This document shows positions 4,580 through 42,467 of a stretch of DNA of 54,834 nt, one piece after another. The notes beneath the pieces were generated by a model. The model was not told where the DNA came from and did not search any database. It saw nothing but the letters and a program-made list of their open reading frames with translations. Position 1 is the first letter of the stretch; each line of letters opens with the position of its first letter. Source of the DNA: Candidatus Kaiserbacteria bacterium (GTDB taxonomy: Bacteria > Patescibacteriota > Minisyncoccia > Phycocordibacterales > UBA918); assembly GCA_031418275.1 (NCBI GenBank), contig JANOXF010000065.1, positions 1 through 54,834 of the forward strand, in the 5' to 3' direction. The position numbers and the translations under genes are program-made.

Positions 4580-5143
4580 TCACCACCTCTTTGTGGTCAC
4601 GCAGCTGTGTGGGATGCCCGTGAGCGGAAGAACAAGATCAGCACCAGGGTCTCGCTTGCGTGGGTGCACATGGACATTGCCCAGTTGGAACACTCTGTGA
4701 AGAAGTTCCCTATGTTCAATACCGAGCGCACCGTAGTACCCTTCGCGGAGTTCAAGATACAACTGAACGTACATCCGCCGGTGAGTGCGCCAATCGTCAT
4801 TGGTGCACTCATCAGCACGGAGAACGATTCGCTGAACCTTCAGAACCTCCCGGATGCGTCGCCGAGCCTCTCCGTAGATACTTAGGAGCTTCCCCTGAAG
4901 TACCAGTTCGACATCGGGACTATTTGCCTCCCGTTCGCACGGCGACGCAAGCAACTGCTGTACCCCATCAGAACCTCGAGCTAATTTCTGCTCAAGCATA
5001 TGAGGTAAGTCTTCAAGGAACGCGATGCGTTTCAGTACAGAATCCCCACGACTTGTCGACTCAATACCGCTTTTCAACTCTCGGTGAAGCTTTGCACCCT
5101 CAATCGCTCCACGTCGTAACGCCTCACATTTGACTGTTGTCAT
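4580..5143 (-). CDS. hypothetical protein
   Basis: 187-aa ORF with AAAGGAAA before the ATG. Two hairpins follow the stop. I recognise no motif. Confidence 0.45.
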   Translation of the reverse strand: MTTVKCEALRRGAIEGAKLHRELKSGIESTSRGDSVLKRIAFLEDLPHMLEQKLARGSDGVQQLLASPCEREANSPDVELVLQGKLLSIYGEARRRIREVLKVQRIVLRADECTNDDWRTHRRMYVQLYLELREGYYGALGIEHRELLHRVFQLGNVHVHPRKRDPGADLVLPLTGIPHSCVTTKRW

Positions 5144-5159
5144 TACACATTTCCTTTGC

Positions 5160-5492
5160 TTACTTTGTGAAATCGTTGACGAATCGTGAGTGAAGGTGAT
5201 GATCGTATTCAGCGAGAACTATCGCCTGATACGCATCGGGAGGTTTCTTCTGAGCAGTCAGGACAGAGAGCTCACCTTTGATGCTTGCGAGAGCACCCTC
5301 TAGGCGATGAAAGCGCCCCATTATCTCCTTGCGCTTCTTGAACTCCCAAAACCTGAGTGGCTGAAGCTGTCTCTGAAGTGCCGCAATTTCGCGGTTGAGA
5401 TTCTGAACTACAATGGAGTAGACTTGCACCTTATGCTCCAAATTTTTTGCTAGCATACGGCCAGCGCGTACAAACCAGAACGTACGATACAT
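5160..5492 (-). CDS. hypothetical coiled-coil protein (start moved to an internal ATG)
   Basis: The track ORF 5160-5567 contains a strong terminator hairpin at 5522-5550. ATG 5490-5492 sits 6 nt after a TATAAC box (5499-5504). Confidence 0.5.
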   Translation of the reverse strand: MYRTFWFVRAGRMLAKNLEHKVQVYSIVVQNLNREIAALQRQLQPLRFWEFKKRKEIMGRFHRLEGALASIKGELSVLTAQKKPPDAYQAIVLAEYDHHLHSRFVNDFTK

Positions 5493-5521
5493 ATATTCGT
5501 TATATTCGTCAATTTTGTATG

Positions 5522-5550
5522 AAAAGGCCGTCCACGGGGACGGCCTTTTT
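5522..5550 (-). terminator. rho-independent terminator after the 5564-5899 gene
   Basis: ggccgtcc-acgg-ggacggcc flanked by A4 and T5. Confidence 0.7.
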
Positions 5551-5563
5551 GCGAGCAGCGCTT

Positions 5564-5899
5564 TCATGCGCTGAACAGCCTAAAGCATTCACGAAGAAAG
5601 AAGGGTTCAATTGCTGTATCCTTGCGAAGCTGGATTGGTTTGTTGACTACCTCCATGAGCAGTACGCCGACTGCAATGGGAAGTGGCCACTGCGGTGAAG
5701 AACGAATGTTCCCCCTGACGGTGTAGACCACACCTACTCGGGGAACGATAAGGCCCTTGTCAATCAGACCTTTGGTCCAGATTTCTCTGTCAGGTTCAAC
5801 GATACACCTGACCTTCGTGCCGAGTCTCGGTGGAAACGTGAGGTCACTTACCACATGTCTCTTCCCAAACATAATCGTACTCCTTGCGAGTTGAGACAT
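5564..5899 (-). CDS. hypothetical protein
   Basis: 111-aa ORF followed by the terminator at 5522-5550. Confidence 0.5.
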   Translation of the reverse strand: MSQLARSTIMFGKRHVVSDLTFPPRLGTKVRCIVEPDREIWTKGLIDKGLIVPRVGVVYTVRGNIRSSPQWPLPIAVGVLLMEVVNKPIQLRKDTAIEPFFLRECFRLFSA

Positions 5900-6023
5900 A
5901 TTTACTATACGCCTCTTTGAATAATTTTTAAGTTGGGGAGGTGCTTAACTTTGTGAAGCTAGAGGAATCGGTCACAATACTTATAGATTCTGAATGCTAT
6001 AATTTCTTTGTAATCCGTAACAC

Positions 6024-6623
6024 ATGAAAAAAAATACTAAGATTGTTGTTTCTTTCGTCGTGGTAATTATCATTGGTGTTCTCGTCTATATACAAACGTT
6101 TGGCGCAAAGCCGGTTGAACAAAGTGTTCAGAATGCGGTAGTTACAGAACAATCCCCAACTGCATACGAAGTTATAAACGGTGTAACCGTACCTCCAGAA
6201 CCCGACCCAGAGCTCAACAATGCGACGCTCGCGGGGATTGATGTGAATGAGAATGGTGTGAGGGATGATGTGGAGCGGTGGATAGTACGTACATACCCCA
6301 ACTCCGAAAAGACTCAAAAAATACTTATGATTATGGCGAGGGAGTTCGAATCAGCTCTATTCTATACAAAAAGTGACAATACACAGTCAGCGATACTTGC
6401 ACAAACCCGAGTCACTGACTCTATCGACTGCTTATGGTACATACGATCAGATGATGCTATTAGCATAAGAAGTTTACTCTTTGCACAAATACTTAGTACC
6501 AAAGAAAGGACTCTTACATACGTAGAGTACAATAGACTTTCCGCTGGTTCTCCTGTAGATCGTCAACCTGAAGAATTTAAAGATGGATGTACAGGATTTG
6601 ACCCTGATCTATTGATAAATTAA
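6024..6623 (+). CDS. hypothetical membrane-anchored/secreted protein
   Basis: N-terminal MKKNTKIVVSFVVVIIIGVLVYI anchor. A TATAAT box lies about 25 nt upstream. Confidence 0.7.
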   Translation: MKKNTKIVVSFVVVIIIGVLVYIQTFGAKPVEQSVQNAVVTEQSPTAYEVINGVTVPPEPDPELNNATLAGIDVNENGVRDDVERWIVRTYPNSEKTQKILMIMAREFESALFYTKSDNTQSAILAQTRVTDSIDCLWYIRSDDAISIRSLLFAQILSTKERTLTYVEYNRLSAGSPVDRQPEEFKDGCTGFDPDLLIN

Positions 6624-14230: not shown

Positions 14231-14417
14231 GTCGTGGAGCCGGGAATCGAAAGACGCAGCGTTGTGAGACACTATTCACAATGTGTCGAACAAGCGAGTC
14301 GGGGTCGCGAGTGCTTACTAAAATTAGAGCAGAGCGAATAATTATAGTTAGCAACTTGTGACCGATTCCCTGCTTTTTCGTAATGAAAGATTTATAGTTT
14401 CTTTCCACAAAAGCACA

Positions 14418-14949
14418 GTTTCATGTGAAACGGTGCTTTTGTGAAAAAATTGCTTTATTATCGTTCCACGTGGCACGTTGTATAATGTTTCACATGAAAC
14501 TAATCAAGTATTACATTATCAATTAGTTTAATTCGAGCAATCTTTTCACGTGGAACGAGGCGCAAAGTAATTATATCTGTCTGCCACTCCCCTTTATATT
14601 TATTCTCAGCAATCCACGTCTGGATTGCCCTTTTGAACCGATCTATTTTATTTCTATGAACATTTTCCTCAGGTCTCCATGTTTCATGTGAAACCGAATA
14701 ATCTAATGCAGACTTTGTTTCATATGAAACAGTTTTTACCTCTACAAAATGGACCTTTCCTGATGTTTCACGTGTAATGATATCAATTTCTCCCCACTTT
14801 TTGTTGTAGTTACACTCGATAATACGAAAATCTTGCGATTCTAACCACGCAGCAGCCATTTGCTCACCTAGCTTCCCAATTTCGTTATGCCTTGCCATGT
14901 TTCATATGAAACACTAGATTGTACTTCAAATCAATGTTCCACGTGGAAC
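14418..14949. repeat. cluster of nine 14-bp palindromes GTTYCAYRTGRAAC
   Basis: Sites at 14418, 14463, 14487, 14543, 14681, 14717, 14765, 14899 and 14936 (start coordinates). Some have one imperfect half. Confidence 0.85.
14500..14898 (-). CDS. YraN-family (UPF0102) predicted endonuclease
   Basis: GKLGEQMAAAWLESQDFRIIECNYNKKWGEIDIITRE...VHFVEVKT matches the YraN pattern (GE.A..yL...G...l..N.r...GEiDli......lvFVEVK). Confidence 0.75.
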   Translation of the reverse strand: MARHNEIGKLGEQMAAAWLESQDFRIIECNYNKKWGEIDIITRETSGKVHFVEVKTVSYETKSALDYSVSHETWRPEENVHRNKIDRFKRAIQTWIAENKYKGEWQTDIITLRLVPREKIARIKLIDNVILD

Positions 14950-15373: not shown

Positions 15374-15468
15374 TATACTGCGCAGCTTTCGATTACCCAC
15401 AGAAAGCACGAAGGTGCTTTGTTCTAGCTGCGCCAATAGAAAAGGCGCCGTGAGGCGCTTTTTCATTG

Positions 15469-15492
15469 GTGCGGCCAGGGGTAATCGAAACC
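15469..15492 (-). repeat. 24-bp duplicate of the 3' end of tRNA-Gly(GCC)
   Basis: gtgcggccaggggtaatcgaaacc is identical to 15794-15817. Confidence 0.9.
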
Positions 15493-15660
15493 TGATGGTC
15501 ACTAATTCGTTTCACTCATAAGTGCCACGGGTCACGCCTCACTTGTTCGTAAACTCACATAGTTCCGGCGGTTTCGATTACCCCAAAAGGTGCGCAGGCA
15601 CCTTTCTCCTGGCCACAATCGTAAAAGTCCTTGAAGGAGACTTTTGTTTTGACCTCTGGT

Positions 15661-15733: not shown

Positions 15734-15794
15734 ATGGCTCCGCCTCACAAAAGCGAAACGACCTGAAATTAATCAGGTCGTTTTAGCGCTTTTG

Positions 15795-15865
15795 TGCGGC
15801 CAGGGGTAATCGAAACCCCGACTAATGCTTGGCAAGCATTCGTTATACCACTTAACCATGGCCGC
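15795..15865 (-). tRNA. tRNA-Gly (anticodon GCC), no encoded CCA
   Basis: GCGGCCA-TG-GTTA..-AATGC-TTGCCAA-GCATT-..-GGGGT-TTCGATT-ACCCC-TGGCCGC-A. Confidence 0.9.
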
Positions 15866-15876
15866 AAACTACTCCT

Positions 15877-16536
15877 CTATAACTCCTTTAGAGCAAGCTC
15901 TATCCACTTCATGAGCTTTTTCTTCATGACAGCGCTACCGATTATAGTATTTCCAACACCATACTGCAATGTGCGCTTTGTACTTTTTCCTTGAATTACT
16001 TGATATTTGTGGAATTGAGCGAGGGGAATCTTAAGTGCCTTTGACCACGCTCGTGAACATTTCTCCGGATCAAGATCAGGGTAGAGCAGTACCCAAAAAC
16101 GTATCTTTTCACGTGGAACACCCAAAAACGCTTCGAGAAAAGCGATGAAGATGCGGTGGATGTCCATTTGTATATTTGCGAGACGGATGAGGCGAGAATC
16201 GCCATTATCACCCTCACCAACGTAGAGCATGAGCCCCGCAATGAAAAGGGAACTGGTCTTGTAATGTTTGTATTCAATAACTGCAGAACGCTCCGCTTCT
16301 GCATAGAGTTTTTTGTATTGATTCCCACGAGCTTTATTGAGGAGAGAGATACGTTTACTATTTTCTTTTGAGGCACGCTTCTGATTGTCTTCGGTTATTT
16401 TATGAGACCATTGCTCATCTTTGAGCCAGAGGGAAATCGTGCTCACCGAGACGCCAACGTACTTTGCAATCTCAGTATAGGTAAAACCTCGCCTACGAAG
16501 CTCTAGGGCTTTTTGTTTTTCTGCTTTTTTACTCAT
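15877..16536 (-). CDS. HTH domain plus single LAGLIDADG-like motif protein (putative free-standing homing-endonuclease-like)
   Basis: RRRGFTYTEIAKYVGVSVSTISLWLKD (HTH) and FIAGLMLYVGEGDNG (LAGLIDADG-like). Paralog of 17069-17746. It stops 11 nt before tRNA-Gly. Confidence 0.55.
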   Translation of the reverse strand: MSKKAEKQKALELRRRGFTYTEIAKYVGVSVSTISLWLKDEQWSHKITEDNQKRASKENSKRISLLNKARGNQYKKLYAEAERSAVIEYKHYKTSSLFIAGLMLYVGEGDNGDSRLIRLANIQMDIHRIFIAFLEAFLGVPREKIRFWVLLYPDLDPEKCSRAWSKALKIPLAQFHKYQVIQGKSTKRTLQYGVGNTIIGSAVMKKKLMKWIELALKEL

Positions 16537-16660
16537 GGTAGTATGAGTATATTATCTACTAAGCCATAGGTTCGATTTATACTGATTTCGAGTATGGTGG
16601 GGGATACTGGGGTCGGAGGGACTCGGTCGCAAGTTGCCAAGTCACTTTGTGGGGTCAAGT

Positions 16661-16733
16661 TTCTAAACTCTCTATGTTCGTTAAGAACTTTCTCCCCGGA
16701 CTCGGTTGTTTTGGCATTAGAAATAGCCAAAAC
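16661..16733. repeat. two-hairpin module, copy C
   Basis: H1 at 16661-16687 (ttctaaac...gttaagaa). H2 at 16708-16733 (gttttggc-ATTAGAAATA-gccaaaac). Confidence 0.7.
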
Positions 16734-16833
16734 ATACCTCCGTCTTGCACCAAGGCACGAAAGCAAAACCTTTTGCTTTCTAAACTAAAGACCACATCAG
16801 TTTTAAAACTGATGTGGTCTTTAGTTTGCCTTG

Positions 16834-16915: not shown

Positions 16916-16980
16916 AACAGCTTCGAGTCCCTGGACTTACAATAGAAAAACCGGCGCAAGGCCGGCATTTCTATTGTAAG

Positions 16981-17053
16981 TGCACCCAGAGGGACTCGAA
17001 CCCCCAACCCCTTGTTCCGAAGACAAGTACTCTATCCGTTGAGCTATGGGTGC
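16981..17053 (-). tRNA. tRNA-Arg (anticodon TCG), no encoded CCA
   Basis: GCACCCA-TA-GCTC..GAGT-A-CTTGT-CTTCGGA-ACAAG-GGGTT-GGGGG-TTCGAGT-CCCTC-TGGGTGC-A. Confidence 0.9.
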
Positions 17054-17068
17054 AGTAGACAGAGCTTA

Positions 17069-17746
17069 CTATCCTTTTGCGTAATGTTCAATCAACATAT
17101 TCTGCCAAAATTTCATTTTCAAGAGTAGTCCCTTACTCTTTCTCACCTCAATGCGCACGCACCCCTTGTACTGTGGGCGCTTTTTAACACCACGTCCGCT
17201 CGGTTTATATGTCGTCTTTCCAAATTGTACCGCTTGCACTCCAAGTTTATTCTGCCACCATAACTCACAGTTTTCATGAGCATAGAGTTTATGTATGTAT
17301 AAGCGAAAGTGTAACTCCAACTTCTTTACTTCAATGTACTTCTCAAGCCACTTAATCATTACGAGTGACATTTCCTCATCCGAATTTGTAAATCCCCACT
17401 GGTTCACGCGTTTTGAGCCTTCGGCCCAATATAGGGCAACACCTGTATGAAAAAATGGCTCGTGTTTATATTTTCGGAAAGTCTTTCTTGCTTCATCGAG
17501 CCACACAGACTCACGGCTTAATCTCCTATTTCTTAATATCCCAGCGACTTTAATTCTTCCGCGCGTTATGTTGCTCGTTCGACGTTTCTTGAGTGCTTTT
17601 TTCTCATAATCAGTCAGGGGGAAATCCTTTAACCAGAGTGAGAGTGAGCTTTTTGCAACTTTGACTTCATCAAGGATATCCCGATAGCTCATCCCACGTT
17701 TACGCATTTCAATTGCTCTCTCTTTTTCTTGTACTAGTGCTTTCAT
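17069..17746 (-). CDS. HTH domain plus single LAGLIDADG-like motif protein (paralog)
   Basis: RKRGMSYRDILDEVKVAKSSLSLWLKD and HTGVALYWAEGSK. It stops 15 nt before tRNA-Arg. TATAAT (17756-17761) lies 9 nt before the ATG. Confidence 0.55.
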   Translation of the reverse strand: MKALVQEKERAIEMRKRGMSYRDILDEVKVAKSSLSLWLKDFPLTDYEKKALKKRRTSNITRGRIKVAGILRNRRLSRESVWLDEARKTFRKYKHEPFFHTGVALYWAEGSKRVNQWGFTNSDEEMSLVMIKWLEKYIEVKKLELHFRLYIHKLYAHENCELWWQNKLGVQAVQFGKTTYKPSGRGVKKRPQYKGCVRIEVRKSKGLLLKMKFWQNMLIEHYAKG

Positions 17747-41519: not shown

Positions 41520-42467
41520 TCACACCTGTTTCTTGTTATGAAATTTCTTGTGAATATCCCGAAGATGCTTGTCCGTCACATGCGTGTATATTTGGGTCGT
41601 CCCTATGTGTGCGTGTCCGAGGAGTGCCTGTACCGAGCGGAGGTCGGCACCATTGCTGAGGAGATCAGTCGCGAAGCTGTGTCGTATGACGTGCGGGGTC
41701 ACCTTGCGCGTAATGCCGGCTATAGTCGCATACTTTTTGATGATGCGTTGCACGCTCCGTGGGGTAAGGCGTAAGTCCTTATTATCAGTTGTCGTCTGTT
41801 TCGCGTTTTTTCCATACTGTACAAACATCGCGTCATCAAAATCTTTGCGCGCTTTAAGGTACTCTCGAATTGCTTCACGTGCGGTGTCGGAGAGAAACAC
41901 GACGCGTACTTTATCTCCCTTTCCTCGTACCGAGAATTCGTCCCGAGAAAGATCGACGTCCTCTTGTGAGAGTCCGCAAAGTTCTGAAACGCGGAGACCG
42001 GTCGAAAAGAGGAGTTCAAGCATGGCGCGGTCGCGCATGCCGACGAGTGTGTTTCGCTCGGGCGCTTCCATGAGCCGCGTGAGCTCTTCTGACGAAATGA
42101 GGTCGAGCGAACGTTCCGGAACTTTTGCGAGTTCGATACGCTCGGGGTTGAGTGAATCGACTCCGCGTCGACGTAAGTATTTCAAAAATGCACGGAGTGC
42201 GATGAGATAGTAGTTTTGTGTCTTGCGTTTGAGTGTGTCTGTTTGTCGTCCCACCTTCGTCCCAGGTTGACGATTGAGCCAGAGGCGATATTCACGCACC
42301 ATTTCTTCGGTGAGTTTTTTTGGGTCGGTTACTTTACTGTATTCAAGAAAGCGGGTGAGGTAATGATCATAGTTTGTGACCGTATGAATGCTCCGTCCCT
42401 TTTCGATTTCGAGGTACTCGAGAAATTGTCGTTTAAGCTCATGAAGATTCATCATATGCAGATACAT
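41520..42467 (-). CDS. tyrosine recombinase XerC/XerD family
   Basis: LRVSELCGL (Arg), HVIRHSFAT (H-x-x-R), LLGHAHIGTTQIYTHV (His, Tyr). The exact start is uncertain. Confidence 0.9.
   Translation of the reverse strand: MYLHMMNLHELKRQFLEYLEIEKGRSIHTVTNYDHYLTRFLEYSKVTDPKKLTEEMVREYRLWLNRQPGTKVGRQTDTLKRKTQNYYLIALRAFLKYLRRRGVDSLNPERIELAKVPERSLDLISSEELTRLMEAPERNTLVGMRDRAMLELLFSTGLRVSELCGLSQEDVDLSRDEFSVRGKGDKVRVVFLSDTAREAIREYLKARKDFDDAMFVQYGKNAKQTTTDNKDLRLTPRSVQRIIKKYATIAGITRKVTPHVIRHSFATDLLSNGADLRSVQALLGHAHIGTTQIYTHVTDKHLRDIHKKFHNKKQV

Follow-up and report, generated by a model that had tools for sequence, protein, structure and literature searches.

Several of the sites bound by Spo0J in B. subtilis lie within genes, spo0J itself included, and the plasmid centromeres sopC of F, parC of R1 and parS of P1 each consist of multiple closely spaced sites that nucleate one partition complex. 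Amongst the published chromosomal parS sites, that of B. subtilis and C. glutamicum reads TGTTNCACGTGAAACA, that of M. smegmatis GTTTCACGTGAAAC and that of Myxococcus xanthus, where 22 sites form a cluster, TGTTCCACGTGGAACG (Table 1 of PMC7022226).

The window (by which is meant the whole stretch of 54,834 nucleotides from a Candidatus Kaiserbacteria contig that was analysed) carries an array of GTTYCAYRTGRAAC palindromes in and around a gene of the UPF0102/YraN family. Judged by its sequence, the window motif is a canonical parS, GTTYCAYRTGRAAC being the core of tGTTNCACGTGAAACa, the centromere site of ParB/Spo0J (consensus in Table 1 of PMC7022226). With a probability of roughly 0.7, we propose that these palindromes are parS sites which jointly form a compact, centromere-like ParB loading region of the chromosome, overlapping yraN. 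The array resembles the chromosomal ParABS sites of B. subtilis (Spo0J) and M. smegmatis in having the same palindrome, in few copies, in one region and with the capacity to lie in coding sequence. It departs from them in packing six to nine sites into approximately 0.5 kb, in placing four of these in fixed codons of a 132-aa gene and further ones at its start and stop, and in having neither parAB nor dnaA within 10 kb. The plasmid centromeres, unlike this array, use other sequences and binders, are usually non-coding and lie beside the par operon. Literature searches turned up nothing that connects CPR bacteria with parS or ParB, or parS with YraN, CPR papers searched by text made no mention of ParB, and the yraN-embedded arrangement is, as far as can be told, undescribed.

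The palindrome array and its host gene

A plus-strand scan of the whole window returned six exact matches to GTTYCAYRTGRAAC, at 14418, 14487, 14681, 14717, 14899 and 14936, against 0.01 expected by chance, and not one of 100 dinucleotide-preserving shuffles of the window gave six. Degenerate copies were located at 14463 and 14543 (one mismatch each) and at 14765 (two mismatches); the nine copies within 530 bp reported by the initial annotation are all present as sites, albeit not as equals, with six exact and three degenerate. The sole further good copy in the 54.8 kb, at 16106 (one mismatch), falls inside a neighbouring gene, and the three other two-mismatch matches in the window are scattered and match the 2.9 expected by chance. 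Ten copies consequently occupy 1.7 kb of the window with no good copy elsewhere, which bears out the reported confinement of the motif. Equally confirmed were the copy abutting the YraN start, the copy overlapping its stop (by one nucleotide), the larger hairpin around the 14418 copy, and the common phase of the four copies within the coding sequence, all of which begin at codon position 1 (ITRET, VSYET, VSHET and VPREK). The features are as follows.

14409-14440: inverted repeat of 32 nt enclosing the 14418 copy, AAAAGCAC.GTTTCATGTGAAAC.GTGCTTTT, the arms AAAAGCAC and GTGCTTTT being read from the sequence
14418-14431: parS-like copy GTTTCATGTGAAAC, exact match, between yraN and tRNA-Pro
14463-14476: degenerate copy GTTCCACGTGGCAC, one mismatch, downstream of yraN; matches the conserved downstream pair in related loci
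14487-14500: exact copy GTTTCACATGAAAC, sharing one nucleotide with the yraN TAG stop (14500-14502)
14500-14898, minus strand: UPF0102/YraN-family gene, 132 aa, host of the array (Pfam PF02021, E=1.2e-18)
14543-14556: copy within the coding sequence, one mismatch, encoding V115-P-R-E-K119
14681-14694: exact copy within the coding sequence, encoding V69-S-H-E-T73
14717-14730: exact copy within the coding sequence, CATATG centre, encoding V57-S-Y-E-T61 immediately past the E-V-K catalytic motif
14765-14778: decayed copy within the coding sequence, two mismatches, encoding I41-T-R-E-T45
14899-14912: exact copy TGTTTCATATGAAACA, CATATG centre, abutting the yraN ATG (14896-14898)
14936-14949: exact copy GTTCCACGTGGAAC, canonical CACGTG centre, upstream of yraN
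15877-16536, minus strand: gene of an HTH protein, earlier called LAGLIDADG-like, with Pfam matches to HTH_23 only; syntenic neighbour
16106-16119: outlying copy, one mismatch, in the upstream HTH-protein gene, encoding V-P-R-E-K

The host protein scores 67.7 bits against PF02021 (cutoff 23.6), and its matches to the NCBIfam YraN models fall below their curated equivalog cutoffs, which places it in a divergent subfamily. More than 2,000 YraN homologues were found in the protein collection, and an exact-sequence look-up of the window protein returned no record. The residues D39, E53 and K55 of the D...E-x-K motif are invariant or nearly so in its relatives. The AlphaFold model (pLDDT 82) adopts a PD-(D/E)xK nuclease fold, the best Foldseek matches being the UPF0102 structure 3FOV (E=1.3e-5) and the Holliday-junction resolvase Hjc (1OB8), and the peptides encoded by the parS copies (residues 41-45, 57-61, 69-73 and 115-119) map to strand ends and turns of this model. 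The yraN ATG is directly preceded by a parS copy (14896-14912) with no Shine-Dalgarno sequence, and in many orthologues the ATG chosen as the start sits within the CATATG centre of a site. Since a Shine-Dalgarno sequence finds no space at yraN, initiation must be SD-independent or leaderless.

Conservation of the array across CPR genomes

YraN relatives are encoded by 577 species-level genomes, from which 80 loci of approximately 20 kb each were kept. By name, nearly all belong to the Patescibacteria/CPR (Kaiserbacteria, Nomurabacteria, Paceibacteria, Parcubacteria, Campbellbacteria, Wolfebacteria and Minisyncoccia), and their YraN proteins are 42-68% identical to that of the window. Comparison of these sequences reveals that, in the Paceibacteria/Parcubacteria part of the CPR, the sites of the array have stayed at orthologous places. 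Sites recur within the coding sequence at about +120, +168, +204 and +342, and in the flanks at about -60, at the start codon, at the stop codon and some 25 bp past the stop. The site at residues 57-61 (V-S-Y-E-T) matches the motif without a mismatch in most of the 80 loci, and the position of the decayed 14765 copy is occupied in the relatives by GTTGCACGTGRAAC (V-A-R-E-T). A CG-centred upstream site is kept about 45-50 bp ahead of the yraN start, and a downstream pair is conserved at a spacing of 24-25 bp. On average, 5.7 sites per locus lie within 400 bp of the yraN coding sequence; of the 81 loci, 52 have a site that lies at, covers or abuts the start codon, and 25 have one at the stop codon.

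Altogether, 534 sites with at most one mismatch were collected, approximately 90% of them from -300 to +600 bp of the yraN start, with a tail to -2.6 kb. The 80 genomes hold 195 sites within the coding sequence and 242 within 300 bp of it; in the roughly 1.2 Mb of flanks, no more than three are over 3 kb away. Rather than occurring at the uniform frequency of a HIP-like palindrome, the motif is restricted to one locus in the window and in the 80 loci alike. The cyanobacterial HIP1 and the REP elements resemble it in being short palindromes that can be coding and that prefer certain frames, but they are spread over the whole genome.

The surrounding gene order is also conserved, comprising the CCA-adding enzyme (in divergent orientation), the HTH protein, a tRNA, yraN, tRNA-Pro, CorA, a hydrolase, a sigma factor and a DUF5667 protein. 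Taken singly, these neighbours occur in 36-61 of the 81 loci. Such stability bears on three related suggestions, namely that the palindromes act in RNA as hairpins or terminators, that they derive from a mobile palindromic element, or that they mark the recombination boundaries of a cassette, a group of readings which we consider largely refuted and highly improbable. The first could appeal to the 14418 copy, part of a longer hairpin with a T-rich stretch behind it, and to the 14936 copy, which scores as terminator-like; however, an arm of 6 bp and a centre of 2 nt are too small to make a full hairpin alone, and the sites flank the transcription unit on both sides and occur in an oppositely oriented gene. 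The propagating palindromic element offered by the initial annotation is contradicted by copies that stand at orthologous codons and flanks in 80 species, not at insertional positions, and that are nearly absent from the 1.2 Mb of flanks. Recombination or cleavage sites delimiting a gene cassette, also proposed there, sit badly with the stable synteny, with sites inside the coding sequence and in neighbouring genes, and with the shift of sites to the CCA-enzyme gene in some loci. Sites of the attC type, for which a variable context would be expected, were likewise rejected, as the synteny of yraN is conserved instead (in 50-61 of the 81 loci).

A conserved structured RNA of approximately 180 nt was observed at 15445-15625 of the window (minus strand), between tRNA-Gly and the parS/yraN cluster, with a terminator-like hairpin after it (15458-15445); a second, weaker copy lies near 16650-16760 on the same strand. 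It recurs in other loci (L015:1185-1362, L046:7108-7290 and L028:8705-8900, amongst others) and its sequence identity is 72-88% between loci at which that of the proteins is only about 55%. In the RNAalifold structure, 19 of the 46 base pairs show compensatory changes. A 7-bp stem closes the structure, whose other elements are a hairpin of 8-9 bp capped by four nucleotides, mostly CUGC, and a helix of 13 bp that does not vary, GGUAAUCGAAACC/GGUUUCGAUUACC. A search of Rfam returned no match for this RNA even at E<=1, and only tRNAs were found amongst the Rfam families in the region; it is possibly an undescribed CPR small RNA.

Selection at silent positions and the shared reading phase

The peptides VSYET, VSHET and VPREK are conserved at the protein level, which raises the question of whether the palindromes could be a mere by-product of the conserved protein. 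In 81 yraN genes aligned by codon, 16 motif codons were compared with 108 others, and synonymous identity amounted to 0.81 in the former versus 0.43 in the latter (Mann-Whitney p=2.7e-9). Glutamate is written as GAA in 188 of 202 cases inside motifs versus 501 of 866 outside, and arginine as CGT in 124 of 151 versus 79 of 563. At the 57-61 site, the prevailing codons are GTT for V57 (76/78), TCA for S58 (69/79), TAT for Y59 (63/66) and GAA for E60 (68/69); at the 69-73 site, GTT for V69 (52/53), TCA for S70 (39/43) and CGT for R71 (29/29); and at the 115-119 site, CCA for P116 (54/55), CGT for R117 (51/51) and GAA for E118 (59/66). Equally conserved residues outside the motif use all their codons, E12 being GAG in 41 genes and GAA in 40, P76 having four codons and R75 six. 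The near-fixation of silent positions in motif codons rules out the by-product explanation and demonstrates selection on the DNA itself. Far from encoding the same residues from non-palindromic DNA, as the refuting condition of the initial annotation would have required, the orthologues keep the silent positions fixed as well.

The common phase of the copies within yraN calls for less. Across the related loci, copies within the coding sequence of any gene occupy two frames only, V-S-R/x-E-T and F-H-V-K/E, in a ratio of 33:13, and the third frame of the motif reads GT TTC AYR TGA, i.e. a stop. The single shared phase is hence largely explained by one of the three frames creating a TGA stop, and the chance of 1 in 27 given by the initial annotation was too strong: with two open frames at 33:13, four copies would agree in phase with a probability of about 0.1-0.3.

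Site centres and candidate binding proteins

Public metagenome contigs were scanned for two motif copies 5-35 bp apart, yielding 120 contigs. ParA/ParB homologues were found on 65 of them (both on 50, Soj/ParA only on 14 and Spo0J/ParB only on one), the GC content of these 65 ranged from 27 to 72%, and in the contig rows that were checked the motif pair lay directly upstream of parA. It is this adjoining of motif pairs to parA/parB that argues for the motif being canonical parS, and it renders ParB a far better candidate for the binder than YraN or the neighbouring proteins. The earlier suggestion of binding sites for a dimeric protein therefore survives in kind, as predicted ParB sites, with YraN and its neighbours giving way as the binder. 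The flanks point the same way: roughly 45-65% of the 534 sites from related loci have a T just before the 14-mer and an A just after it, which reproduces the 16-bp parS consensus.

Dense arrays of perfect parS were also noticed on metagenome contigs, at L146:1045-2026 (15 identical copies of GTTTCACGTGAAAC in 1 kb), L142:106-1963 and 4933-6156 (29 copies in two blocks), L113:174-1174 and L170:281-1145 (10 copies upstream of parAB), and these may be the centromeres of other small-genome lineages or of plasmids. The M. xanthus cluster and the L170, L146 and L142 arrays share with the CPR array many tandemly spaced parS sites in one centromere region. The arrays of L170, L146 and L142 lie where no long ORF was called, that of L170 directly upstream of parAB, whereas a conserved ORF runs through the CPR array, which carries two codes at once, an extreme case of gene overlap.

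The sites of the window type differ at their centre, which is relaxed to YR with CATATG common. Amongst 172 exact sites on parA/parB contigs, the centre is CG in 157, CA/TG in 15 and TA in none; the intergenic sites at CPR yraN loci comprise 50 with CG, 48 with TA (43%) and 13 with CA/TG. Nearly half of the CPR intergenic sites are therefore CATATG-centred, unlike parAB-adjacent parS, and on these counts the CATATG-centred form looks specific to the CPR yraN lineage. Its frequency here and its absence beside parA/parB would imply that the specificity of the binder is altered or relaxed, or that a second protein is involved.

A regex for GERRxRA and phmmer searches with Soj and Spo0J as queries found neither ParA nor ParB in the window or in the 80 loci of 20 kb each. 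Regexes for DnaA and SMC signatures found nothing within 10 kb of yraN in the 81 loci, a DnaA-box scan found no cluster in the window, and the GC-skew profile of the window gave no origin signal and no switch of sign. Taken in the orientation of yraN over the 80 related loci (L001-L080), the skew is about zero or slightly negative upstream and strongly positive over the 10 kb downstream (80-99% of loci), probably because the conserved downstream genes all share the orientation of yraN. In record coordinates, which are not distances from the origin, yraN is placed 26 kb into the 617 kb of OZ244961.1 and 302 kb into the 995 kb of CP060229.1. A gene for a tyrosine recombinase of the XerC/XerD type is present at 41520-42467 (minus strand; Phage_integrase, E=6e-46), 27 kb from the parS cluster.

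The HTH-protein gene lies upstream of yraN in 61 of the 81 loci, and its family carries motif copies in 14 loci, the 16106 copy of the window included. It has a paralogue at 17069-17746 (minus strand), the two being 25% identical to each other, and a tRNA gene directly follows each of them (tRNA-Gly at 15794-15865 and tRNA-Arg at 16980-17053). The description of the neighbour as LAGLIDADG-like is unsupported, given that Pfam and NCBIfam yielded HTH profiles only for both paralogues and that the top 50 Foldseek PDB matches of the HTH model included no LAGLIDADG structure and none at E<=0.001. In the model (pLDDT 84), the HTH is N-terminal and is accompanied by a helix of 50 residues and an alpha/beta domain. 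With 786 homologue matches, the best 120 of which show 61-87% identity, above the conservation of YraN, the first paralogue is a member of a very conserved uncharacterised Paceibacteria family. This gene is a syntenic neighbour and at most a candidate part of the mechanism.

A lineage-specific protein, either this upstream HTH protein or a YraN dimer, might nevertheless bind the sites, as a replacement centromere binder or as an autoregulator of the locus. That no ParB was found in the window or the 80 loci would suit such a protein, as would the CATATG variant specific to CPR yraN loci. The HTH protein recommends itself by its strong conservation, its position on the same contigs and the motif copies in its gene, and the N-terminal HTH and long helix of its model could permit dimerisation; YraN has a restriction-enzyme-like fold. 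We nonetheless hold this explanation to be unlikely. The motif is identical to canonical parS and is linked to parAB in 65 of 120 unrelated contigs, and its retention without ParB would be an odd coincidence. Five loci, L005 (eight sites), L033 (five sites), L065, L070 and L074, have arrays of three to eight sites each with no HTH gene within 10 kb. A YraN homologue was found on three of the 120 metagenome contigs, and the other 117 bear parS pairs without YraN, which speaks against YraN as the binder; the contigs with neither ParA/ParB nor YraN homologues are mostly too short to judge. A YraN that cleaved the site would, moreover, destroy its own gene.

The most divergent loci (L067, L068, L072, L075, L076 and L080) have a yraN with few or no sites, and in these the adjacent CCA-enzyme gene holds sites, usually two per locus. 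Given that sites shift to the CCA-enzyme gene, and occur in the HTH gene too in 14 loci, their distribution would show the function of the array to be positional and not gene-specific, which fits a chromosomal landmark and not a single-gene operator.

The predicted centromere and what it would mean

By analogy with ParABS (PMC7022226), ParB dimers encoded elsewhere in the genome would bind each palindrome, close into CTP-dependent clamps and slide outward, and the resulting partition complex would load SMC and/or be moved by ParA, so that ParB binding, clamp loading and segregation are all predicted to take place at the array. The yraN codons for V-A-R-E-T, V-S-Y-E-T, V-S-H/R-E/G-T and V-P-R-E-K, together with the start and stop regions, would double as parS. 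YraN would be the host of the sites and not their binder, its gene merely lying beneath the centromere in a tiny, gene-dense genome. Counting against the centromere reading is the fact that the array does not lie beside parAB, the commonest place of parS elsewhere. Also against it weigh the CATATG centres, the lack of an origin signal in the window, and the outcome that no signature of ParA, ParB, DnaA or SMC was found in the window or within 10 kb of yraN in the 80 loci.

A closer relation between the two codes can also be imagined, in which ParB-bound parS and yraN form one functional unit, occupancy of the sites gating the transcription or translation of the nuclease, or YraN acting at the centromere. 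The sites at the two ends of the gene (start codon in 52 loci out of 81, stop codon in 25), the lack of room for a Shine-Dalgarno sequence in the window, an association lasting down to about 45% protein identity and the intact catalytic residues of YraN would all accord with it. Against this, divergent relatives keep yraN without sites and have sites in the CCA-enzyme gene, and in B. subtilis the expression of genes beside parS is unaltered on loss of Spo0J (PMC7022226). A coupling of gene and centromere is purely conjectural, and we give this version only a slim chance. Somewhat less doubtful, yet still speculative, is the broader notion that the Paceibacteria centromere and the nuclease gene constitute one dual-code object, in which the CATATG sites would be owed to a ParB whose preference for the central bases has changed, or else to a second reader that is not ParB (the upstream HTH protein being the candidate), with occupancy also controlling YraN, or with ParB even replaced.

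Under the preferred reading, that of a ParB loading region overlapping yraN, the locus would offer a first solid starting point for studying how chromosomes segregate in the Parcubacteria/Paceibacteria, a very large part of the CPR with almost no cultured members, by providing a predicted centromere with exact sites and a testable prediction of ParB specificity (CG versus TA centres). The locus may also be usable as a marker of the segregation/origin region in fragmented MAGs. For annotators, the peptides VSYET, VSHET and VPREK in this YraN subfamily may reflect a function of the DNA and not of the protein. The array constitutes an unusually clean natural case of overlapping codes, in which a DNA-binding array would have fixed approximately 20 codons at their silent positions as well as in the residues that they encode, a fixation that spans the sampled lineages with YraN down to about 45% identity.
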